64,000 nt of DNA from contig CAVSDM010000011.1 in assembly GCA_963726735.1 (NCBI GenBank), forward strand, positions 2,827-66,826, in the 5' to 3' direction. Source of the DNA: an uncultured Acidobacteriota bacterium (GTDB lineage Bacteria; Acidobacteriota; Blastocatellia; Pyrinomonadales; Pyrinomonadaceae). The notes beneath the pieces are model-generated. The model ran no database searches. It had not been told where the DNA came from and saw only the letters and a program-made list of their open reading frames with translations. Positions 3,001-57,318 of the stretch are shown in pieces. Every line of letters begins with the position of its first letter. Position 1 is the first letter of the stretch. The translations under genes were made by a program, and so were the position numbers.

Positions 3001-3122
3001 ACTTCGTCGAGGTCTTGCGCGCGCGGCATTGGTCGAAAGAGAGATGATGAGAATGATGCTGACGAAAATCAGTCTGAAGTCGAAGTGAGCGAGGGTGTGC
3101 GGAAGAAGGCGTGGCCGTTCAT
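1..3122 (-). CDS. TonB-dependent receptor with N-terminal carboxypeptidase-regulatory-like domain; frame broken many times; 3' end runs off the window
   Basis: Minus-strand pieces in three frames read in order. First a signal-like IFVSIILIISL, then AQDLDEVSFSGVVADENGAVIPGASVTA and TDEEGRYRLVELQPG (CarboxypepD_reg-like). Next come plug-region motifs YSNNITIDGLDNNDD and VQVITNQFSAEYGRASGGRVNLRTRAGSN. Barrel-like segments follow (GLRYERESVFRDRNNFAP, ESYQANVGFERELGRGFVFEANYTFNRGLHLW). The 843-aa ORF 374..2905 in the track is mostly out of frame (Arg/Ala-rich). The start is uncertain (ATG at 3122 or 3029). Confidence 0.75.
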
Positions 3123-5484: not shown

Positions 5485-5824
5485 TCAGCGTCACAAGTAA
5501 GAACTGCGCTATGAAGGGGCCGCCCGGTGAGCACTCAAGCCGTGGCGGCCGACTTCTGCATGCGTCAACGCGTAGCGCCCGTCGCGCCGGGCTCGCGTCT
5601 ACATATAACTTTCGCGCCGACGCGTCTCTCACGATTGCACGCGCTCGGCCGCGGGGTCGCAGTCTTGTCTTAAAAGCACAATCAAACCGTAACACCCCGC
5701 GCGGACGCAGGTATTAAAGTAGAAGGCTTTTCGAGGCACTCTGTCCTCTTTCTCTCTCCACGCGGCGGCGTGCGCATCGCGCATCGCCTGCCCAACCAAC
5801 CTAGACCAAGAGATGGAGTTGAAA

Positions 5825-21735: not shown

Positions 21736-21776
21736 GGTTGAAGGCGCGGCGGGCCATCGCCAACGATGGTATTACG

Positions 21777-21972
21777 CCGCGTTAGCGGCGTCTGAATTTA
21801 GCCCGGCCTTTCAAGGCCGGGTCCGGCGACGATTAACATGACGCCGCGTCGCGTCAGCGACGCCTGAACGGGCTCGATAGGTTCAGGCGTCGCTGACGCG
21901 ACGCGGCGGTGTTCGTTTAAACCTTAACCCGGCCTTGAAAGGCCGGGCTACATTCAAGCGCCGCTAACGCGG
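21777..21972. repeat. Nested-palindrome intergenic element, copy A
   Basis: Outer stem 21777-21790 / 21959-21972 (14 bp perfect). Small hairpin agcccggcctttcaaggccgggt (21800-21822) has its exact reverse complement at 21927-21949. Central 26-bp perfect stem 21844-21869 / 21881-21906 with an 11-nt loop. Confidence 0.9.
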
Positions 21973-22006
21973 CGGCTGGTCGCGGCTTTCCTTAAACAAC
22001 TCCTGC

Positions 22007-25326: not shown

Positions 25327-28300
25327 TTGAGCACGTTCGTCAGGAGAAGTTCCCCTTTGAATTTAAGAGACGCTGCCCGCCTCACGCTGGCCTGTGTAGT
25401 CGTGTGCCTAATCGCGCCGCTGGCCGCCGCCGCCCCCGGGGGCGCGCCGCCGCGCGCGTCAACGGCCGCCCCGCCGCAGACCTTCAACCTCTCGGACTTC
25501 GGCGCCGTGGGTAACGGCGTGACCGACGACGGGCCGGCCTTGCAGGCCGCGCTCGACGCGGTCATCGCGGCGGGCGGCGGGACGCTGCTCGTGCCCGCGG
25601 GCCGCTTCGCCATCGTCACGCCGGTCGTGGCGACCGCGACGGGGCCGAACGTCTCGCTCGAAATCCGCGGCGTCGAATCTTCGACCCCCGTCCCTCCGCC
25701 GACGGCGGGCGGCGACATGCTTTCCCGCGGGCTCGACCTCACCTCGGAGTTCGCCCCGAAGACCGGCGCCCAGCAGATCGCCATCCTGGTTCAGGGGTTC
25801 AGCCACTTCCTCATCCAGGACATTTGCTTCATCGGCTCGATAGACGTGGACAACGACGCGCTGTCAACGCTCGCCATCTCTTACGTCCCCGACGCGGTCA
25901 TCCGGCACTGCGAGTTCTACGGCCTGATGAGCCAGTCCCCCGGCGGCTCCATCGTCCAGAGCTTCGGAGGCGGCCTCACGATTCAGCAGACGAAGTTCCT
26001 CGGCTGCACCGGCAACAGCGGCATCTCCGTCCCGGTCGTCCAGAACTACTTCTGGAAGTCGATCACCGTCGAAGACACCATCTTCATCGACTACGGGCAG
26101 CGCCCGGAGTTGTACGCGAAGACGGGCTACGGCGCGCCGTACTCTTGGGTCCACGTCGGGCCGGCCGCGCCGCCGACGGCCGACCTGCCGCGGCGCGAGG
26201 TCGTGCTGCGTAACCTCTTCCTCGACGAGGGCGGGTGGCTGGGCATCAGCGTCCTACCGGCGCAGTTCCAGAGCAACCCCGTCCCCGTCGATCTCTTCTA
26301 CGCGACGGGCTTCTACGTCAACGTCTCGAACTTCTTCACGACCGGCCTCTACATCTCCGGCGTGCGCCAGGCGATGGTCGAGGACTCGCGCTTCACCTGG
26401 ACCCACCGCGCCAACGCCGCCCTCGAAATCTACGGCCCGCAGGACGCCATCCTCGACCGCATCCGGACGGACGCGGGGGCGACGCGTCTCCAGGCCGACT
26501 CCCTGACCCAGCGCCTCACCGTCATCGACTCGATCTACAGTGACCTCGCGTCCTCGGCGGTGCAGACCATCGTGCTCACGCCCGCGACGCCCGACGACGA
26601 CCCCGTGCGCTACGTCCGCGCGCGGTTCGAGTCGGCGCTCGGGCGCGCGCCCGACGCGGCGGCGCACTACTACTGGTCGCGCAAGCTCCTCGACTGCGGC
26701 GCGGACGCGACCTGCGTCGTAGCGCAGCGTGCGGCGCTCGCGGCCTACCTCGCCACCACACCGGCGCCGACGTTCGACATCAACGGCCGCGCGACCGGCG
26801 AGGGCGACCAGCCGCTCGCGGGCGTCGGGGTCACGCTGACGGGCACGCACCTGGCGGCGACGTTGACGACGCTGACCGGCGCCGACGGCTCTTACAGCTT
26901 CAACCGCCTGCCGACGAGCGGGGTCTACACCTTCAAGGTCGGCACCAGGCGCCACTACACGTTCGCGACGCCGACGCGCACCGTCACCACGCCCGCGGGC
27001 GCGCAGGTCGTGAACTTCCCTGCGACGCTCAACCGCTACGCCGTCGGCGGCCGGCTCCTCGACGAGCGCGGCCGCCCGATACAGGGCGCGACCCTGACGC
27101 TCTCGGGCGCGCAGGCCGCCACGACCAGCTCGGACGTGAACGGCAACTACACGTTCGCGAGCCTCCCGGCCGGCGGCAATTACACCGTCAACGCTTCGAG
27201 CACGCGCCACACGTTCGCGAGCCCGTCGCAGACGTTCACCGATCTCGACGCGAACAAGACGGCCAACTTCAACGCCACGTCGCTCTTCTACAACGTCAAC
27301 GGGCAGGTCGTTGACTCGGCCAACAAGCCACTGGCCGGACAATCCGTCGCGCTCTCGGGCGGGAAGACCGCGACGGCCACGACGGACGTGCAGGGTAACT
27401 TCACCTTCGTCGATCTGCCGCGCGGCGGCGCCTACACGGTCACGCCCGCGAAGCTCCTCGGCAGTCTGTTCACGCCCGCCGCGAAGAGCTTCGAGAATTT
27501 GACGGCCGACCAGACGGCCGTCTTCATCGCCGTCAAGACCGACTACAAAATCGCCGGGCGCGTCACCTCCGCCGGGACGGGTCTCGCGGGCGTGACTCTG
27601 ACGCTCACGGGCTCGAAGCAGGCCACGACCACGACGGACGCTAACGGCGCCTACTCCTTCAGCGTTCCCGTCCACGGCGACTACGCGGTCGCGCCCTCGA
27701 AGACGCACTACGCGTTCGACCGCGTGAGCGCGACCTTCGGCGGCGTCACCTCCGACAAGACGGCCGACTTCGTCGCGACCATCAACCGGCACAAGCTCAG
27801 CGGCGTCGTCAAACGGCCGGCGGGCGCCGCGCTCTCCGGCGTGACCGTCACGCTCTCGGGCGCGCAGGCGGCCACGGCGACGACCGACGCGCAGGGCGCC
27901 TACAGCTTCGCGAACCTGCCCGCGGGCGCCGCCTACACCGTCACGCCCTCGAAGCCCGGCTACGACCTCGCCCCCGCGTCGCAAAGCTTCACGGATCTCG
28001 GCGCGGACCGGACGGCCGACTTCTCCGTCACGCCCTCGAACGTCGCGCTCGCGGGGCGCATCACTGTGGACGGCGCCGCGCTCGCGGGCGTCACCGTCGC
28101 ACTCACGGGGTCGAAGACCGGCGCGGCCACGACGGACGCGCAGGGTAGATACTCCTTCAACGTCACGTCCGAGGGCACTTACACCGTCGCGCCCTCGAAG
28201 ACGCACTACAAGTTCGCGCCGTCGGCCCTTACCTTCAACGACCCGATCTCCGCGCAGACGGCCGACTTCGCCGGCACGCTCGACCGCCACAAGATCAGCG

Positions 28301-31300
28301 GGCGCGTCACGGACGGGCAGAACAACGCCGTCGCCGGAGTCGGCGTCACGCTCTCGGGCGCGCAGGCGGCCGCGACGACGACCGACGCGAACGGCAACTA
28401 CGCCTTCACGAACCTTCCGGCCGGCGGCAACTACACTCTCACGGCCGCGAGGACGAACTACTCCCTTGCCCCCTCCGGCATCGCCGTAAGCGACCTCGGC
28501 GCCGACCAGACGGCCGACTTCGTCGCGACGCTCAACCGGCACAGGATCAGTGGCACCGCCAGGAGTCCGGCGGGCGTCGCGCTCTCCGGCGTGACCGTGA
28601 CGCTCTCGGGCGGGCAGGCGGCCGTGACGACGACCGACGCGCAGGGCATCTACGCCTTCCCGAACCTCCCGGCCGGCGGCAACTACGTCGTCACCGCCGC
28701 CAGGGTCAACTACTCATTAAGCCCGGTCAGCGTCCCCTTCAACGACCTCGGCGCGGACCAGACGGCCGACTTTACGGGCACGCTCCTCGACTACGTCGTG
28801 CGCGGCCGCGTCACCGCCGCGGGCGGCGCGGCGCTCGCGGGCGTGACCGTGACGCTCTCCGGCTCGAAGGCGGGCACGGCGACGACCGACGCTAACGGCG
28901 GCTACTCCTTCACCGTGCCGGCCGAGGGGAGCTACACGGTCACGCCGTCGCGCAAGCACTACACCTTCGCGCCGACCTCCTCGACCTTCACGAATCTCGG
29001 CGGCGACAAGACCGCCGACTTCGACGCGACGCTCGACCGCCACACCGTCTCGGGACGCATCGCCGACCAGAGCGGTGCGGGGGTACAGGGCGTGACCGTG
29101 ACGCTCTCGGGCTCACAGTCGGGCACGGCCACGACGGACGCGCAGGGTAACTTCTCCTTCCCGAACCTTCCGGCCGGCGGCAGCTACACCCTCACGGCCG
29201 CGAAGGCGAACTACACGTTCGCCCCGCAGGCGCGGAGCTTCGATGACCTTTCGTCCGCGCAGACGGCCGACTTCGAGGCGACGCTCAACCGCCACGCCGT
29301 CTCGGGCCGCGTCGCCTACGCGAACGGCGCGGGCATACAGGGCGTGACCGTGACCCTCTCGGGCGGGCAGGCGGCCACGGCGACGACCGACGCGCAGGGC
29401 GCCTACAGCTTCGCGAACCTGCCCGCGGGCGCCGCCTACACGGTCACGCCCGCGCTCGTGCATCACACCTTCGCACCCGCGTCGCAGAGCTTCGACGACC
29501 TCGGGGCGGACGCGCGCGCCGCCTTCACGGCCGCCGTCGTGAACTACCGCATCGCGGGGCGCGTCACGGAGAAGGGCGCGCCGCTCGCGGGCGTCGAAGT
29601 GACCCTCGCGGGTACGCACGCCGTGCTCGGCGCGCAGGCCGGCAAGGCGACGACCGGGGCCGACGGCGTCTACTCGTTCACGGCGCCCGCGGGCGGCGAC
29701 TACACGGTCGCGCCCGCGCTCGCGAACCACACCTTCGCACCCGCGTCGCGGAGCTTCGATGACCTTTCGTCCGCGCAGACGGCCGACTTCGAGGCGACGC
29801 TCAACCGCCACGCCGTCTCAGGCCGCGTCGCCTACGCGAACGACGCGGGCCTCGCGGGCGTGACCGTGACCCTCTCGGGCGGGCAGGCGGCCACGGCGAC
29901 GACCGACGCGCAGGGCGCCTACAGCTTCGCGAACCTGCCCGCGGGCGCCGCCTACACGGTCACGCCCGCGCTCGTGCATCACACCTTCGCACCCGCGTCG
30001 CAGAGCTTCGACGACCTCGGGGCGGACGCGCGCGCCGCCTTCACGGCCGCCGTCGTGAACTACCGCATCGCGGGGCGCGTCACGGAGAAGGGCGCGCCGC
30101 TCGCGGGCGTCGAAGTGACCCTCGCGGGTACGCACGCCGTGCTCGGCGCGCAGGCCGGCAAGGCGACGACCGGGGCCGACGGCGCCTACTCGTTCACGGC
30201 GCCCGCGGGCGGCGACTACACGGTCGCGCCGTCGAAGAAGAACTCCGTCTTCGGCCCGGCCGCGGCGACGTTCAAGGGTCTGGCCGCGGACCAGACCTCA
30301 GACTTCGACGCGTCGCTCCAGACCGTCGTGAGCTTCGCCGCGACGAGCTACACGGTGGGCGAGGGCGGCGGCAGCCTGACCGTCACCGTCACGCGCGAGG
30401 GCGACACCACGACCGGGGCTTCGGCCGTCTACGAGGGGCGCAGCGACACGGCGAAGCTCGGCTCCGACTTCGTCGCCTCCGTCGGCCTGCTCACCTTCGC
30501 CCCGGGCGAGACCTCGAAGACCTTTACGCTCTTCATCACCGACGACGCCTTCGCCGAGGGGCCGGAGCGGTTCACGCTGACGCTGACGCCGTCCGGCAGC
30601 ACGGTCACGGGCGACGTGGCCGTCACGTCGGTGACGATCAACGACAACGACGCGACGACCTCTCCGGTCAACCCGCTCGACGACGACGAGTTCTTCGTCC
30701 GCCAGCACTACCGCGACTTCTTCAGCCGCGAGCCGGACGCGCCGGGGCTCAAGTTCTGGACGGACGAGATCAAAAAGTGCGGCACGGACGCGCGCTGCCG
30801 CGAGGCGCGGCGCGTCAGCGTCTCGGCCGCCTTCTTCCTCTCCATCGAGTTCAAGGAGACGGGCTACTTCGCCTACCGCCTCTACCGCGCCTCGTACGGA
30901 CGCGCGCCGGCGCGCTCCGGCGAGTTCATGCTCGACTCGCGCGTGTTGGGCGACGGCGTGGTGGTCGGCGCCGATGGGTGGGCCGGGCGGCTCGCGGCCA
31001 ACCGGCGCGCGTTCCTCGAAGCGTGGACGCAGCGGCAGGCGTTCAAGGAGCGCTTCGCGGGCTTTACCGACTGGTGGTTCGTCGAGACGCTCTTCAACAA
31101 CATGAACGTGACGCCGACCGAGGCCCGCCGCCAGGCGCTGCTGGCGAAGCTCGGCGCCGGCACCTCCCGCGCCGAGGTGCTCGCCGAGGTGATCGAAGAC
31201 GAGCAGTTCAACAAGCAGGAGATCGACCGCGCCTTCGTCCTGATGCAGTACTTCGGGTATTTAAGAAGAAACCCCAACGACCCGCCCGACTCCGACCTGA

Positions 31301-31416
31301 CCGGCTATAACCACTGGCTGGGCAAGCTCAACGAGTTCGGCGGCGACTACGAGAAGGCCGAGATGGTCAAAGCCTTCCTCTCCTCGACCGAGTACCGCGG
31401 GCGCTTCGGGAATTGA
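25327..31416 (+). CDS. Giant secreted surface protein: pectate-lyase-like beta-helix, DUF4214, 14 CarboxypepD_reg/Ig-like repeats, Calx-beta, DUF4214
   Basis: Intact 2029-aa ORF. A TTG at 25357 preceded by AGGAGA is a more likely start than 25327. Signal peptide LTLACVVVCLIAPLAAAA. Beta-helix N-cap FNLSDFGAVGNGVTDDGPALQAALDAVIAAGGGTLLVPAGRF. DUF4214 YVRARFESALGRAPDAAAHYYW. Repeats of ~84 aa (GRV...LAGVTVTLSG.QAATATTDAQG.YSF.NLPAGG.YTVTP). Calx-beta VSFAATSYTVGEGGGSLTVTVTREGD...GSDFV...LTFAPGETSKTFTLFITDDAFAEGPERFTLTL. C-terminal DUF4214 FVRQHYRDFFSREPDAPGLKFW. Confidence 0.85.
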   Translation: MSTFVRRSSPLNLRDAARLTLACVVVCLIAPLAAAAPGGAPPRASTAAPPQTFNLSDFGAVGNGVTDDGPALQAALDAVIAAGGGTLLVPAGRFAIVTPVVATATGPNVSLEIRGVESSTPVPPPTAGGDMLSRGLDLTSEFAPKTGAQQIAILVQGFSHFLIQDICFIGSIDVDNDALSTLAISYVPDAVIRHCEFYGLMSQSPGGSIVQSFGGGLTIQQTKFLGCTGNSGISVPVVQNYFWKSITVEDTIFIDYGQRPELYAKTGYGAPYSWVHVGPAAPPTADLPRREVVLRNLFLDEGGWLGISVLPAQFQSNPVPVDLFYATGFYVNVSNFFTTGLYISGVRQAMVEDSRFTWTHRANAALEIYGPQDAILDRIRTDAGATRLQADSLTQRLTVIDSIYSDLASSAVQTIVLTPATPDDDPVRYVRARFESALGRAPDAAAHYYWSRKLLDCGADATCVVAQRAALAAYLATTPAPTFDINGRATGEGDQPLAGVGVTLTGTHLAATLTTLTGADGSYSFNRLPTSGVYTFKVGTRRHYTFATPTRTVTTPAGAQVVNFPATLNRYAVGGRLLDERGRPIQGATLTLSGAQAATTSSDVNGNYTFASLPAGGNYTVNASSTRHTFASPSQTFTDLDANKTANFNATSLFYNVNGQVVDSANKPLAGQSVALSGGKTATATTDVQGNFTFVDLPRGGAYTVTPAKLLGSLFTPAAKSFENLTADQTAVFIAVKTDYKIAGRVTSAGTGLAGVTLTLTGSKQATTTTDANGAYSFSVPVHGDYAVAPSKTHYAFDRVSATFGGVTSDKTADFVATINRHKLSGVVKRPAGAALSGVTVTLSGAQAATATTDAQGAYSFANLPAGAAYTVTPSKPGYDLAPASQSFTDLGADRTADFSVTPSNVALAGRITVDGAALAGVTVALTGSKTGAATTDAQGRYSFNVTSEGTYTVAPSKTHYKFAPSALTFNDPISAQTADFAGTLDRHKISGRVTDGQNNAVAGVGVTLSGAQAAATTTDANGNYAFTNLPAGGNYTLTAARTNYSLAPSGIAVSDLGADQTADFVATLNRHRISGTARSPAGVALSGVTVTLSGGQAAVTTTDAQGIYAFPNLPAGGNYVVTAARVNYSLSPVSVPFNDLGADQTADFTGTLLDYVVRGRVTAAGGAALAGVTVTLSGSKAGTATTDANGGYSFTVPAEGSYTVTPSRKHYTFAPTSSTFTNLGGDKTADFDATLDRHTVSGRIADQSGAGVQGVTVTLSGSQSGTATTDAQGNFSFPNLPAGGSYTLTAAKANYTFAPQARSFDDLSSAQTADFEATLNRHAVSGRVAYANGAGIQGVTVTLSGGQAATATTDAQGAYSFANLPAGAAYTVTPALVHHTFAPASQSFDDLGADARAAFTAAVVNYRIAGRVTEKGAPLAGVEVTLAGTHAVLGAQAGKATTGADGVYSFTAPAGGDYTVAPALANHTFAPASRSFDDLSSAQTADFEATLNRHAVSGRVAYANDAGLAGVTVTLSGGQAATATTDAQGAYSFANLPAGAAYTVTPALVHHTFAPASQSFDDLGADARAAFTAAVVNYRIAGRVTEKGAPLAGVEVTLAGTHAVLGAQAGKATTGADGAYSFTAPAGGDYTVAPSKKNSVFGPAAATFKGLAADQTSDFDASLQTVVSFAATSYTVGEGGGSLTVTVTREGDTTTGASAVYEGRSDTAKLGSDFVASVGLLTFAPGETSKTFTLFITDDAFAEGPERFTLTLTPSGSTVTGDVAVTSVTINDNDATTSPVNPLDDDEFFVRQHYRDFFSREPDAPGLKFWTDEIKKCGTDARCREARRVSVSAAFFLSIEFKETGYFAYRLYRASYGRAPARSGEFMLDSRVLGDGVVVGADGWAGRLAANRRAFLEAWTQRQAFKERFAGFTDWWFVETLFNNMNVTPTEARRQALLAKLGAGTSRAEVLAEVIEDEQFNKQEIDRAFVLMQYFGYLRRNPNDPPDSDLTGYNHWLGKLNEFGGDYEKAEMVKAFLSSTEYRGRFGN
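26771..30320 (+). repeat. 14 tandem ~84-aa domain repeats (coding), alternating two subtypes
   Basis: I counted 14 units from TFDINGRATGEG to DFDASLQTV. Odd and even units alternate: SG..LSGAQAATATTDAQGAYSFANLPAGG versus AGRVT..LAGVTVTL.GSK..TTDA.G.YSF.V..G.YTVAPSK.HY. Confidence 0.85.
29231..30230 (+). repeat. Near-identical 516-bp tandem duplication (two-domain unit) inside the giant gene
   Basis: 29231-29714 matches 29747-30230, offset 516 bp (172 aa), with about seven substitutions by eye. Confidence 0.9.
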
Positions 31417-31421
31417 GAGTA

Positions 31422-31490
31422 GTAGGCAGATGGCAGTCGGCAGTTGAAAACGTCGCTGACGCGGCTTGCTGCCGACTGCCATCTGTCTAC
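31422..31490 (+). repeat. Inverted word array (GTAGGCAG/ATGGCAG family) forming a 22-bp hairpin just after the giant gene
   Basis: gtaggcagatggcagtcggcag (31422-31443) faces ctgccgactgccatctgtctac (31469-31490). There are 22 pairs, one of which is a G-U wobble on the plus-strand RNA. Loop 25 nt. There is no U-tract. The gene ends TGA GAG TAG TAG. Confidence 0.8.
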
Positions 31491-31807
31491 CGACTGCCGC
31501 GCCTGAGATTGCGACCCCGTTGCCTTCCGGTTGTTTTTAAGAGCCCGACGCCTCCCCGCTTGACACGACCCGCGCCTCCCGTTAGTGTGAGCGCCGTCCC
31601 ATTTAGTTTGCGTGGATCTCACCAGTCACACGCGAACAATCCTAAGCGACAACTGCTCAGGGTTGACGAAAGCCGTTAAGGGCTTTTTGCGCCCGTCGTC
31701 CGAGCCTGTGCCCCCTGTCTGCCCGCGGCCTTCTCCCGGCCGGGGGCGCGCGGGCTCGCCGCGTGCGCGCCGAAGTCCTGACCTTGATACACAACTAAGG
31801 AGAGCCA

Positions 31808-35233: not shown

Positions 35234-35367
35234 AAACGGCGACGTAAAACCTCTCGCGCCGCCGCACAACTTCGGCGCTGTAAGTCCACAATGAGGTTCG
35301 GAGCCGGGGTCCGGGGCTGAGACAATAATAAAGAAGGCGGGAGGGAAAAGGCAAAGGGAGTAGAGAG

Positions 35368-35626
35368 TAGGCAGTAGGCAGCAAGCCGCGTCAGCGGCAG
35401 TTTGAATTGAGCCCGGCCTTTCAAGGCCGGGGCCGCCGTCAGTTATAGGTGCCGCGTCGCGTGAGCGACGGCTGAACGGTTCAGCCGTCGCTCACGCGAC
35501 GCGGCGCCGTAGTCGTCCAGTTTACCCGGCCTTGAAAGGCCGGGCTCAACTCAAGCGCCGCTCTGCGGCGTTCGACGCACGCGCTACGTTTATCTCTATC
35601 ACTGCCTACTGCCATCTGCCTACTGC
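35368..35626. repeat. Nested-palindrome element, copy B, embedded between GTAGGCAG-type word arms
   Basis: Word arms 35368-35382 and 35600-35626. Small hairpins at about 35410-35431 and 35525-35547. Central 27-bp stem 35451-35477 / 35479-35505. The interval 35385-35524 is the exact reverse complement of 39311-39450. Confidence 0.9.
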
Positions 35627-35937
35627 TTTTGCCGGTAGTGCTCGACGAGGGCAAAGAGTTGCTCCGTCTCTACGTCGGAGAGACCTTTGAACTCGACGCC
35701 GACGCCCCAGCGCTCGATGTGGTAGCGCACCTCGCCGTAGAGCGTCTTCTGCTCGGGCAGCCAGAACTTGATGAAGACGGGCTGGCCGCGCGCGGCGTCG
35801 CGCTCGGTGCGGAGGAAGTAGCCGCCCTCGCTGAGGCTGATGATGCGGTCGTGGAACGGGCAGTCGTCGGTCCAACCCCAGTAGACGTGTATGTCCACCA
35901 ACACCCGCTCGTGCCTGCGCTGTTCGGTGAAGGTCAT
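35620..35937 (-). CDS. PilZ-domain protein
   Basis: MTFTEQRRHERVLVDI (RxxxR-type motif) and ISLSEGGYFL (D/N-x-S-x-x-G-like). About 105 aa from ATG 35937. The upstream part of ORF 35620..36135 looks non-coding. Confidence 0.65.
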   Translation of the reverse strand: MTFTEQRRHERVLVDIHVYWGWTDDCPFHDRIISLSEGGYFLRTERDAARGQPVFIKFWLPEQKTLYGEVRYHIERWGVGVEFKGLSDVETEQLFALVEHYRQKQ

Positions 35938-37422: not shown

Positions 37423-39233
<1,811 letters not shown>

Positions 39234-39240
<7 letters not shown>

Positions 39241-39482
39241 GCGGTAGGCAGACGACAGTAGTTGAGATAAACGTAACGTATACGTCGAACGCCGCAGAGC
39301 GGCGCCTGAGTAAACTGGACGACTACGGCGCCGCGTCGCGTGAGCGACGGCTGAACCGTTCAGCCGTCGCTCACGCGACGCGGCACCTATAACTGACGGC
39401 GGCCCCGGCCTTGAAAGGCCGGGCTCAATTCAAACTGCCGCTGACGCGGCGTCTGCCATCTGCCTACTGCCATCTGCCTACT
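39234..39482. repeat. Nested-palindrome element, copy C (inverted relative to B; lacks one small hairpin)
   Basis: 39311-39450 is the exact reverse complement of 35385-35524. There is a ~25-nt deletion of one cccggcc hairpin relative to B near 39306-39311. Word arms at 39234-39261 and 39453-39482. Confidence 0.9.
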
Positions 39483-39488
39483 ATTCTT

Positions 39489-40259
39489 ATGGACATCCTT
39501 GAGCACCAGAGCCGCGCGTGGGACAGGCAGGTCGGACTCGGGAACGAGTGGACGCGGCCCGTCGGGCCGGAGGTCATCGAGGCCGCGCGGCGGGGCGAAT
39601 GGTCGGTGCTGCTCACCGAGCAGAGGTCGGTGCCGCGCGCATGGTTCCCGGCGGAAATGCGCGGGCGCGACGTGCTCTGCCTCGCCTCGGGCGGCGGCCA
39701 GCAGGGGCCGACGTTCGCGGCCGCCGGCGCGCGCGTCACCGTGCTCGACAACTCGCCCGCGCAGCTCGCGCGGGATCGTCTGGTGGCCGAGCGCGAGGGG
39801 CTCGACCTCCAAACCCTCCGGGGCGACATGGCCGACCTCTCCGCGTTCGCCGACGAGAGCTTCGACCTCGTCTTCCACCCCGTCTCGAACTGTTTCGCGC
39901 CGGCCGTGCGCCCCGTGTGGCGCGAGGCGTTCCGCGTGCTCCGGCGCGGCGGGCTGCTGCTCGCCGGCTTCAACAACCCCTCGATCTACATCTTCGACCT
40001 GGAGGACGAGCGGCAGGAGAGGCTCGAAGTGAAGTACGCGCTTCCCTACTCGGACCTCGAAAGTCTGAGCGACGCCGAGCGCGCGGGGGTGCTCGCCGCC
40101 GACCGCCCGCTTGAGTTCAGCCACACGCTCGAAGACCAGATCGGCGGGCAGCTCGACGCGGGCTTCCGACTCACGGCGCTCTACGAAGACCGCCACCGCG
40201 GCCTGCGCGTCGCCGAGTTCATGCCCACCTACGTCGCCACGCGCGCGATCAAACCGTGA
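39489..40259 (+). CDS. Class I SAM-dependent methyltransferase
   Basis: [33 protein letters not shown] (motif I plus the acidic post-I residue), DLVFHPVS and LRRGGLLL. The ATG at 39489 lies just after the repeat. Confidence 0.8.
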
Positions 40260-42455: not shown

Positions 42456-43310
42456 GTGACGCGTCGCCGTCCTCGGCGCGGGCACGATGGGGCACGGCAT
42501 CGCGCAGGCCGCCGCCGCCGCGGGCTTCGAAGTCGTGCTCCGCGACCTCGAAGAGTCCTTCGTCGAGAAGGGCCTGCGCGCCATCGAGTCGAACCTCTCC
42601 AAGGGCGTCGAGCGCGGCAAGGTGACGGACGAAGAGCGCGCGCGCGACCCTCTCAAACATCCGCACGACGACCGCAGCTCGAAGAGACGGCCGACAGCGA
42701 CCTCTTCATCGAGGCCGTCCCCGAGCGGCTCGACCTCAAGCGCGAGACGCTCCGCGCCGTCGAGCGTCTCGACCACGGCGCGACTTCATCTTCGCCACCA
42801 ACACCTCCTCGCTCTCGATCACGGAGATCGCCGAAGGCGCGCGCCGCCCCGAACGCGTCGTCGGCATGCACTTCTTCAACCCCGTCCACATCATGCGCCT
42901 CGTCGAGATCGTCGTCGGGCGCGAGACCTCCGCGCGAGACGGTCGAGGCCGTCCGCGCCGTCGCCGTCGAGGATGAAGAAGGAGCCGATCGTCGTGCGCG
43001 ACGTGCCGGGCTTCGCCTCGTCGCGGCTCGGCGTGGCGCTGGGGCTCGAAGCGATGCGGATGCTGGAGGAGGGCGTGGCGAAGCGAAAGATATAGATACG
43101 GCGATGGAACTCGGTTACAATCACCCCATGGGGCCGCTCCGCCTGACCGATCTCGTCGGCCTCGACGTGCGCCTCCACATCGCCGAGTACCTGCACGCGC
43201 AAGCTCGGCTCGGAGCGCTTCCGCCCCCCCGACATCCTCCGGCGCATGGTCGCCGAAGGCAAGCTCGGGAAGAAGACGGGCGAGGGCTTCTACAAGTGGG
43301 ACGACAGTAG
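42456..43310 (+). CDS. hbd: 3-hydroxyacyl/3-hydroxybutyryl-CoA dehydrogenase; many frame breaks
   Basis: [28 protein letters not shown] (Rossmann fold), [46 protein letters not shown] and [13 protein letters not shown], spread over three frames. The start is approximate. Confidence 0.8.
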
Positions 43311-43423
43311 GCAGTAGGCAGATGGCAGCAGGCAGTTAAGAGTGCCGCTGTCGAGAACGCCGAGATTAACCTTCAACCTCTGCAACGCGGAGCGCTGACT
43401 GCCAACTGCCATACTGCCTACTG
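43305..43423 (+). repeat. Inverted word array (GTAGGCAG family), hairpin with 61-nt loop
   Basis: cagtaggcagtaggcagatggcagcaggcagt (43305-43336) faces actgccaactgccatactgcctactg (43398-43423). About 22 of 25 positions pair. It begins inside the last codons of hbd and ends one nt before the next ATG. Confidence 0.7.
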
Positions 43424-53726: not shown

Positions 53727-53790
53727 GTAAGCAGATGGCAGATGTCGGAATTCGTGGAACGTGTGCGGCGGCGGCCTACTGCCTACTGTC
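53727..53790 (-). repeat. Weak inverted word array (GTAAGCAG/GTAGGCAG family) after ilvD
   Basis: gtaagcagatggcagatg (53727-53743) faces cctactgcctactgtc (53775-53790). Only about 8 nt pair convincingly (gtaagcag with ctgcctac, where an A-C on plus is a G-U on minus). Confidence 0.35.
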
Positions 53791-55477: not shown

Positions 55478-55676
55478 GTAGGCAGCAGGCAGTAATGGGA
55501 TAAAGTTCGCGTCGTGTTACAGCCCCGGAGGGGCGAGATGTTTATAGTAACAGCGATCAATTAATCCCGAGCCCGTCAGGGGCGGCATGCACATGCCGCT
55601 CCTCCGGAGCTTGGAAGATTAATAATCAGCTTGAGCTATAGACATGCCGCCCCTCCGGGGCTCACTGCCATCTACC
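55478..55676 (-). repeat. Second nested-palindrome element between ilvC and ilvD, flanked by word arms
   Basis: agccccggaggggcg (55521-55535) is the exact reverse complement of cgcccctccggggct (55648-55662). Degenerate copies of the same ~20-nt unit form a central palindrome around gcggcatgcacatgccgc (55582-55599). Outer arms are gtaggcagcaggcagta (55478-55494) and ctcactgccatctacc (55661-55676). Confidence 0.75.
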
Positions 55677-55678
55677 TT

Positions 55679-56695
<1,017 letters not shown>

Positions 56696-56710: not shown

Positions 56711-56833
56711 GTAAGCAGGCAGTAGGCAGATGGTCAGCAGGCAGTTAAAACTTTCGGCGGCGGGCGGTTTGGGTTGAAGCGTCTGCGTCCTTCAGGGCGG
56801 AGCCGACTGCTCGATCTGCCTACTGCCTACTGC
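56711..56833 (-). repeat. Inverted word array (GTAGGCAG family) between ilvN and ilvC
   Basis: gtaagcaggcagtaggcagatggtcagcaggcagt (56711-56745) faces gactgctcgatctgcctactgcctactgc (56805-56833). A 14-nt perfect core (ggcagtaggcagat) has degenerate flanks. The ilvN stop (CAG TAG) lies in the right arm. Confidence 0.65.
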
Positions 56834-57318
56834 TCCTCATTCGACACGCGGTTGATGGCGATGTAGCCGGTGCGAGTGATGTCGTTGATGCCGAGGGGGC
56901 GGAGCAGCTCGATGAAGGCGTCCACCTTCTCTCGGTTGCCCGACGCCTCGATGAGCATGCGCGTATGCGAGATGTCCACGACCTTCGCGCGGAAGACCGC
57001 GACGAGACTCAAGACTTCCTGCCGCGCCGCGCCCGGCGTGGCCGAGACATCTATGAGCGCCATCTCGCGCTCGACGTGCGGCTGGCTGGTCACGTCGCGC
57101 ACCTCGCGCACGCGCGCGAGCCGCTCGCACTGCTTGACGATCTGCTCGACCGTGCGGTCGTCGCCCGTCGTCACCACCGTGACGCGCGACCATTCCGGGT
57201 CGAGCGTCGGGCCGACCGACAGCGTCTCGATGTTGAACCCGCGCGCGCTGAACAGCCCCACGATGCGCGACAATTCGCCCGGCTGGTCGGCGACGATGAT
57301 GGAGAGCGTGTGACGCAT
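56827..57318 (-). CDS. ilvN: Acetolactate synthase small (regulatory) subunit
   Basis: Intact 163-aa ORF. MRHTLSIIVADQPGELSRIVGLFSARGFNIETLSV is an ACT domain. It lies immediately downstream of ilvB. Confidence 0.9.
   Translation of the reverse strand: MRHTLSIIVADQPGELSRIVGLFSARGFNIETLSVGPTLDPEWSRVTVVTTGDDRTVEQIVKQCERLARVREVRDVTSQPHVEREMALIDVSATPGAARQEVLSLVAVFRAKVVDISHTRMLIEASGNREKVDAFIELLRPLGINDITRTGYIAINRVSNEEQ

Follow-up and report, generated by a model that had tools for sequence, protein, structure and literature searches.

Intergenic nested palindromes of Pyrinomonadaceae resemble REP doublets and are linked to a Y1 transposase gene in related genomes

The window, by which we mean the whole stretch of 64,000 nucleotides that was analysed, contains three nested palindromes, which we refer to as copy A (21775-21974), copy B (35385-35570) and copy C (39290-39450). 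All three are intergenic. The genes around them are ordinary ones, encoding a response regulator, an MBL-fold hydrolase, GGDEF, PilZ, HxlR and beta-lactamase/TPR proteins and a methyltransferase. An earlier note on this DNA had described a family of three such palindromes, and they are indeed present, with lengths of ~160-200 nt and a degree of repetition far above chance. The 20-nt small hairpin CCCGGCCTTTCAAGGCCGGG has 10 matches in the window, counting both strands, against 0.01 expected, and the 27-nt arm of the central stem has 6 matches against 0.00 expected. A covariance model of the repeat unit, R1, matched the six halves of A, B and C and nothing else in the window. The central stem, given in the earlier note as a perfect helix of 26-27 bp, is 27 bp long in all the copies with no mismatch, and the loop at its tip measures 11 nt in A but 1 nt in the other two copies, in agreement with what had been reported.

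Copy A is a complete doublet, made of two inverted ~95-nt units arranged around the 11-nt loop. The two units were matched by model R1 at 21760-21869 on the forward strand, with 102 bits, and at 21881-21988 on the reverse strand, with 100 bits. Reading from the left, the copy begins with a box hairpin (box1, 21775-21790, CGCCGC-GTTA-GCGGCG), followed by a small hairpin (hp2, 21802-21821, CCCGGCCT-TTCA-AGGCCGGG) and by the left arm (21843-21869, forward strand, GCCGCGTCGCGTCAGCGACGCCTGAAC), which holds its own hairpin, GCGTCGC-GTCA-GCGACGC. An arm of this left type is the REP-like unit that adjoins the transposase gene in relatives. The central loop occupies 21870-21880, and it is at the equivalent position that full-length relatives carry a Y1 transposase gene. 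The right arm (21881-21907, reverse strand) repeats the left arm in reverse complement, and is followed by the right small hairpin, the linker and the right box hairpin (21928-21977, forward strand, with the box at 21959-21974). Folded as single-stranded DNA, copy A has a predicted energy of -109 kcal/mol (z = -18.9). The GCCGC boxes had been interpreted as the two sides of an outer stem. The boxes are there, but each of them folds alone, as a separate 5-6-bp hairpin of the form CGCCGC-N3-4-GCGGCG. Every arm of the central stem likewise contains a 7-bp hairpin of its own.

Copy B is also a complete doublet, with a 1-nt loop and the arm variant GTGA/GACGG. Copy C is the reverse complement of B, minus 26 nt that comprise one small hairpin. 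Positions 39310-39450 of C and 35385-35525 of B are 100% identical over 141 nt in reverse complement, and the damaged half of C gave a model match of just 49.7 bits. The common plan proposed for the three copies therefore holds for A and B as complete doublets, while C retains a single small hairpin. It also follows that the covariation said to occur between diverged copies rests on two independent sequences only, B and C being one sequence in two orientations. B and C lie inverted to each other 3.8 kb apart, and their outer flanks are merely ~83% alike, which suggests recent gene conversion or copying. Judged from its arrangement, the pair could mediate inversion of the enclosed PilZ-HxlR-beta-lactamase segment; the GGDEF-PilZ adjacency of this 3.7-kb segment shows no sign of inversion. 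Both copies sit within inverted envelopes of GGCAG heptads, unlike copy A, which has none. The envelope around B spans 35360-35628 (left part 35360-35384, right part about 35598-35628) and the one around C spans 39232-39500 (39232-39262 with 39451-39500).

The family extends well beyond this DNA. An exact scan for one arm, GCGTCGCGTSAGCGACGSCTGAAC, using one genome per species, returned at least 82 loci, nearly all of them in Pyrinomonadaceae/Blastocatellia MAGs and drawn from at least 25 genomes. In four of the MAGs the scan counted at least 21, at least 16, at least 11 and at least 10 loci. All the loci share one five-hairpin plan, consisting of the box hairpin CGCCGC-N3-4-GCGGCG, the linker YYTGAATTTAG, the small hairpin, a spacer of ~21 nt and the arm, GCC-GCGTCGC-GTCA-GCGACGC-CTGAAC, which is followed by a loop of 1-17 nt and then by the mirror image. 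As the plan is mirrored about the loop, the natural unit is the ~95-nt half, two of which form the element as an inverted doublet. Within the half, the box and linker together are paralogous to the arm, from which they differ at 4 of 24 positions. We built model R1 from 140 halves. The earlier note had proposed a covariance-model search, and among the at least 82 loci listed this gave 152 unit matches, or about one doublet per 8-kb locus, arranged in +/- pairs. The arm-selected loci from other genomes contain 53 full doublets.

Short copies inside one genome differ greatly in their spacers and loops. Many of the family loci are found at contig ends, where assemblies break at the element, and a Logan contig 99.5% identical to the window likewise ends within copy A. 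We also observed the element in MAGs labelled Heliomicrobium (L007) and Opitutaceae (L046), and its presence in these non-acidobacterial bins reflects either mis-binning or horizontal transfer. For 37 doublets we recorded the gene context using heuristic gene calls, and found 29 flanked by co-directional, 5 by convergent and 3 by divergent genes, a split that is roughly that of random intergenic placement. Two spacer types, TTGAGGTTGAACAAAACGAC and GACGNCGAACGTTAACAAGAC, recur in the family and some elements carry one type twice. We attempted to use the two types to assign a polarity to the element, but the orientation scores were too weak and this was set aside.

We compared the 140 halves to see which parts of the fold are conserved. 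The box1 helix is 97% paired with double changes at three of its six pairs, and the hp2 helix, that of the small hairpin, is 98.4% paired with double changes at six of eight. Over all helices 97.7% of cells are paired, and we counted 94 double-changed cells, where shuffles gave 9.1 and slid controls 7-39. The invariance of the arm hairpin is partly circular, because the arm was the search key. In the 53 full doublets we then compared the variants found in the two halves. For the box 4 variants were mirrored and 37 were not, and for the small hairpin 30 were mirrored and 44 were not; these two counts alone are free of the bias from exact-arm selection. The counts for the arm (11 mirrored, 112 not mirrored) and the arm tail (0 mirrored, 60 not mirrored) are biased downward, as the scan demanded one exact arm per locus. 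Variants are thus mostly unmirrored between the halves, and compensation across the long stem is no property of the family. This bears on the compensated stem changes emphasised previously. The two C-to-G differences between the A and B arms are each mirrored on the opposite arm, exactly as claimed, but among the 53 doublets such a pattern is the exception. What is maintained is the local hairpins; the long cruciform predicted from folding energy is not. More than 97% of the pairs are Watson-Crick, and G-T pairs (14) do not outnumber A-C (22), which gives no indication that one transcribed strand has been under selection. Taken together, the local covariation, the unmirrored halves and the lack of a wobble strand bias point to hairpins that act at the level of DNA, and not to one RNA. 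At one pair of orthologous copies we observed that the loop of one small hairpin is flipped, reading TTGAAA in L003 (~3060-3080) and TTTCAA in L057 (~5770-5790), with an unaltered stem, as would be expected if a segment had inverted inside a palindrome.

The site of copy A was compared with its orthologues. We fetched orthologues of the response-regulator gene that adjoins the copy from metagenomes, which gave 59 loci, and found no credible element at any of them, the single marginal match being in L135 (21.9 bits, E ~0.001). Among the loci that have the convergent MBL gene as well, the gap between the ends of the response-regulator and MBL genes is 11-38 nt in eight, compared with 275 nt in the window. 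The site is empty in L094, L096, L098, L100, L101, L103, L106 and L107, and at these eight empty sites the proteins reach 89-94% identity with their counterparts in the window. The presence of copy A is therefore shown to be lineage-specific. Upstream of an ilvD-like gene the situation is reversed, with the element present in the syntenic locus L058 (~90% identical) and a different nested palindrome in the window. Another comparison, of L041 with L058 as a filled and an empty site, was discarded as unclean, the upstream gene being different. In three pairs of MAGs a doublet is kept at the orthologous site, with the hairpins conserved and the spacers and loops diverged. Copies are gained in some lineages and then persist for a long time, as described for REPINs. 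No target-site duplication is visible at copy A, where the limits of the element are blurred by optional heptads of the TGAAGGCTGTGCGCA or GGCAG type, and we found no transposition intermediate and no target-site rule.

The convergent gap between the response-regulator and MBL genes is itself a hot spot, where lineages differ in what is inserted (L088-L146). The inserts include a palindrome with a 26-bp stem, another palindrome, a 22-nt tandem array and a small extra ORF, with examples in L097 (1745-1835), L095 (1145-1275), L089 (1280-1555), L093 and L120. In L094, one of the empty orthologues of site A, a lone box-like sequence, CGCAGCGGAGCGGCG, lies between the two genes at ~1995-2025, and could be the footprint or the seed of an element. 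A nested palindrome of another kind, ~165 nt in length, is located at 55500-55665 of the window (AGCCCCGGAGGGGCG ... CGCCCCTCCGGGGCT, with an inner GGGGCGGCATG-CACATGCCGC hairpin). It sits inside a heptad envelope upstream of the ilvD-like gene, at the site where L058 has the element, and its matches to model R1 are weak (E 0.16-0.25).

In relatives the repeat units are found on either side of a Y1 transposase gene. Inverted units flank this gene in all six loci examined (L027, L079 and L084-L087), and five of these loci have the gene placed between the two arms; in L087 one whole doublet stands on either side. The units of L084-L087 were found by model R1 and have no Rfam match at gathering thresholds. 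In L079 (850-1299) and L027 (1313-1762) the gene encodes a protein of 150 aa, and here a complete left unit precedes the start codon and a complete right unit overlaps the stop codon. The gene is present in two of the at least 82 arm-selected loci listed, and those two are 85% identical and come from different MAGs; there is none within the 64-kb window. With regard to synteny, two MAGs have it downstream of ligA and two others have it between ABC ATPase and permease genes, and these shared neighbours within pairs of MAGs suggest a fixed, vertically inherited position.

The proteins of L079 and L027 match Pfam PF01797 with E-values of 6e-32 and 1e-31 (110.7 and 109.8 bits), and carry the motifs DHVH, WQ and YIRNQREHH (signature Y---Q--HH). 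Against the NCBI model for IS200/IS605 transposases, NF033573, the Y1 protein scores 85.3 bits and passes the cutoff of 55, whereas against the NCBIfam model for REP-associated tyrosine transposases, NF047646, it scores 16.2 bits and fails the cutoff of 80. Its nearest solved relatives are the ISDra2 and IS608 TnpA proteins, and E. coli TnpA(REP) is not among its PDB matches. The 150 aa include no extra C-terminal HTH. At E <= 1e-10 the family contains 4615 proteins, for which the JGI label is often RayT.

The earlier note did not recognise the sequence, and at Rfam gathering thresholds the window yields nothing but a tRNA. The outer two hairpins, that is the small hairpin, linker and box hairpin, do correspond to a known family, Rfam RF01687 (Acido-Lenti-1), which they match at E-value level with scores just below the threshold of 37 bits. 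In copy A we obtained 34.7 bits at 21928-21977 on the forward strand and 33.9 bits for the mirror module at 21775-21821 on the reverse strand, and the right outer module of copy B (35525-35570) scored 33.7 bits. Copies in L007, L054, L004, L027, L079, L011, L031 and L038 pass the threshold with 37.2-50.2 bits, including those on either side of the L027 and L079 Y1 genes. With relatives above threshold the family relationship to RF01687 is clear, although the window copies score just below. The 46-nt model is matched end to end, through an 8-bp hairpin, a CUAAAUUCA-type linker and a 5-bp GCCGC hairpin. Strong Rfam matches to 'miRNA precursor' families were rejected as generic long-hairpin matches far below their own thresholds. 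Acido-Lenti-1 was described by Weinberg et al. 2010 as 'probably RNA' of unknown function, with 89 representatives, and is sometimes found near group II introns in Lentisphaerae (PMC2864571). The RF01687 seed contains many copies per genome, with sites in Acidobacteria and soil. In the literature searched we found no link between Acido-Lenti-1 and a transposase. Unlike RF01687, which is filed as a candidate sRNA, the module observed here is always one of the two mirror-image ends of a larger palindrome, and that palindrome flanks a transposase gene.

The arrangement has close parallels in the REPIN/RAYT system (Bertels & Rainey 2011, PMC3116915) and the BIME/REPtron system of E. coli (PMC3333891), where the palindromic units are extragenic and are for the most part arranged in inverted doublets, which fold into a hairpin. 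As in REPIN and REPtron systems, there are many copies per genome and the Y1/HUH gene is flanked by its own repeat units. As in REPINs, copies are inherited at orthologous sites and the hairpins show compensatory changes, which are common in REP-doublet hairpins according to Bertels and Rainey (PMC3116915). There are also clear differences. REPs are single hairpins of 20-40 nt, whereas the unit here is ~95 nt with three hairpins, and there is no GTAG beside the arm or box hairpins, GTAG being confined to the optional heptad envelope. In contrast to REPINs, variants are mostly unmirrored between the two halves. The Y1 protein falls outside the RAYT sequence class, with the tyrosine motif YIRNQREHH in place of the YI..NP of class 2. 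We also considered the CGTC-tagged REPs (PMC3733652), and rejected them, as the CGTC found here lies within the arm stem and is not a tag.

With the assignment made from motifs alone, the Y1 protein would match TnpA(Y1) subclass 1.2, which is characterised by DH[IV]H, WQ and YIKNQKEHH and whose median length is 148 aa (Quentin et al. 2018, PMC6006769). The protein studied here shares with this subclass the motifs DHVH, WQ and Y---Q--HH, a length of 150 aa and a copy number that appears low. Subclass 1.2 comes mainly from Cyanobacteria and Bacteroidetes and was described without REPs or IS properties (PMC6006769); unlike the subclass as published, the genes here have structured repeats on both sides, and these repeats are abundant in the genome. 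The same study reports class 3 Y1 proteins, with NHVH, YV..EQ, a length of 178 aa and a CnGA foot, and ~600 atypical hairpins in Solibacter usitatus (PMC6006769). The likeness lies in an acidobacterial Y1 gene flanked by atypical, highly repeated structures; the class 3 motifs fit neither this protein nor these hairpins. A further candidate was the TIRYT group, which is mostly of subclass 2.1, with proteins of ~238 aa, a C-terminal HTH and terminal inverted repeats that share GGGGWSAS (Di Nocera et al. 2013, PMC3733652). That survey of TIRtrons describes an Acidobacteria group, and TIRtrons resemble the present loci in having a Y1 gene set between long terminal inverted repeats, of which some are doubly palindromic, and in that these repeats form dimer families of moderate abundance (PMC3733652). 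The protein motifs rule this candidate out; the protein is 150 aa long, and GGGGWSAS is absent from the units. Finally, the likeness to IS200/IS605 elements lies in the transposase family (NF033573), in the small hairpins by the gene ends and in the lack of an evident target duplication. The differences from these elements are that the ends are inverted repeats of one unit, that there is no tnpB gene, and that a rare, syntenic gene contrasts with an abundant and diverse short form.

From these comparisons we consider it likely that the element is a non-autonomous REP-doublet (REPIN/BIME) repeat of a REPtron-like system of Pyrinomonadaceae/Blastocatellia (Acidobacteriota). A MITE-like palindromic mobile element was one of the two identities put forward in the earlier note, and this is the one borne out, the element being present in multiple copies in many genomes, flanking the Y1 gene in six of six loci and, in the case of copy A, being absent from orthologous sites. 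The other was a structured ncRNA, which would be either the Acido-Lenti-1 sRNA or a multi-hairpin RNA of ~200 nt whose function maintains the hairpins. The RF01687 matches, both in the window and at higher scores in relatives, and the strong covariation of the stems are what such an RNA would show, and copies are probably transcribed given that 29 of the 37 lie between co-directional genes. The same module is, however, present on both strands of every element as a mirror image, and the almost exclusively Watson-Crick pairing shows no G-T/A-C asymmetry. There are dozens of copies per genome, their position is unconserved at orthologous sites, and the element flanks a transposase gene. We found no promoter-like site adjoining copy A in our scan; two terminator-like matches occur around it (0.6 expected), at or beyond the right edge and none at the hairpins. 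We therefore regard an RNA gene as improbable, and the elements as probably selfish DNA of an ordinary kind.

An ordinary insertion sequence of the IS200 group, in which the gene-bearing unit is itself mobile and has given rise to the short copies by recent internal deletion (MITE/PATE), would explain why the protein scores as an IS200/IS605 transposase with ISDra2 and IS608 TnpA as its best solved relatives, and why the gene sits exactly at the loop position of the short copies. Such an origin is nonetheless unlikely, as the ends are inverted copies of each other, whereas IS200/IS605 elements have two different hairpins on one strand. The scarcity of the gene among the arm-selected loci, its conserved syntenic positions in different MAGs, the great divergence of spacers and loops among short copies of one genome and the persistence of doublets at orthologous sites between species also argue against recent deletion, and the motifs match a subclass described as lacking IS properties (PMC6006769). 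We also weighed whether the repeats might be host elements with a cellular role, in mRNA 3'-end protection, in termination between genes or as sites for a DNA-structuring protein, for which the link to the transposase would be historical. All the copies are intergenic and packed tightly between gene ends, and doublets are kept at orthologous sites across MAGs, as such a role would suggest. The REPs of E. coli have cellular roles such as mRNA 3'-end protection and termination (reviewed in PMC3733652). Site A in relatives is on the other hand empty or filled with unrelated palindromes, tandem repeats or small ORFs, so no function is tied to that site, and the hairpins are followed by no T-run. 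A host role would also leave the spread of the copies unexplained, and is compatible with a REPtron-like system; as the explanation in its own right we consider it very improbable.

Under the preferred reading, that of a REP-doublet repeat of a REPtron-like system, the unit would be a ~95-nt module of box, small and arm hairpins, two of which in inverted orientation make up the ~200-nt doublet. As the Y1 gene in full-length relatives is flanked by or lies between inverted units, the gene-less doublets are best interpreted as having been moved or copied in trans by the Y1 enzyme. It is established for IS608/ISDra2 and for E. coli TnpA-REP that Y1 transposases recognise their ends as hairpins in single-stranded DNA (PMC5027513, PMC3333891), and the pairing seen in the family, which favours neither strand, fits hairpins that are read in this way on either one. 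The Y1 enzyme of the present system may recognise the small hairpins in the same way as the TnpA proteins of IS200/IS605 and the REP-associated enzyme of E. coli, with the choice of hairpin and the cut site being putative. Copies inserted between genes would probably be transcribed and may affect mRNA ends as a secondary effect.

It is also possible, at about even odds in our view, that Acido-Lenti-1 is no RNA gene but the outer hairpin module found at the ends of a REPtron-like DNA element, with a subclass 1.2 Y1 protein as its partner and with the ~95-nt unit and its doublet as the substrate and the replicating form. This would give a candidate DNA substrate to a Y1 subclass that had none, and a likely origin to an Rfam motif of unknown function. 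The REP-doublet reading accounts for a conspicuous repeat that breaks assemblies of widespread soil Acidobacteria. As probable selfish or domesticated DNA, the three 'structured' intergenic elements should not be annotated as RNA genes. The findings may be of interest to those who work on REP/RAYT systems and to Rfam curation, and involve no new kind of biology.

The heptads that surround B and C are part of a wider pattern in the window. Inverted arrays of a 7-nt unit (GGCAGTA/GGCAGAT ... CTGCCTAC) bracket many of its intergenic regions, and enclose 40-270 nt of varied content, with B and C among it. Further heptad-bracketed sites lie at 43300-43415, about 53730-53790, 55478-55680 and 56712-56835. 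At 31417-31500 a heptad envelope holds a single box-like hairpin, GTCGC-TGAC-GCGGC, which from its sequence is possibly the remnant of an element end. With up to one mismatch, GGCAGTAGGCAG has 17 matches in the window compared with 0.21 expected. The heptads of related MAGs differ, being GGTAGAC in L055, GTAGTCA in L081 and GGAGACA in L058 (5130-5200). GGCAG is found on 22 of 141 outer flanks of units, against a background of 4.8%. The arrays may mark an insertion hot spot, form a second repeat family or serve as an outer module. Lastly, we noted a 2029-aa ORF at 25327-31416 of the window, whose 252-nt (84-aa) tandem repeats number at least 12 and are 60-92% identical at the DNA level, and which includes one pair of 51-nt stretches that are 100% identical.
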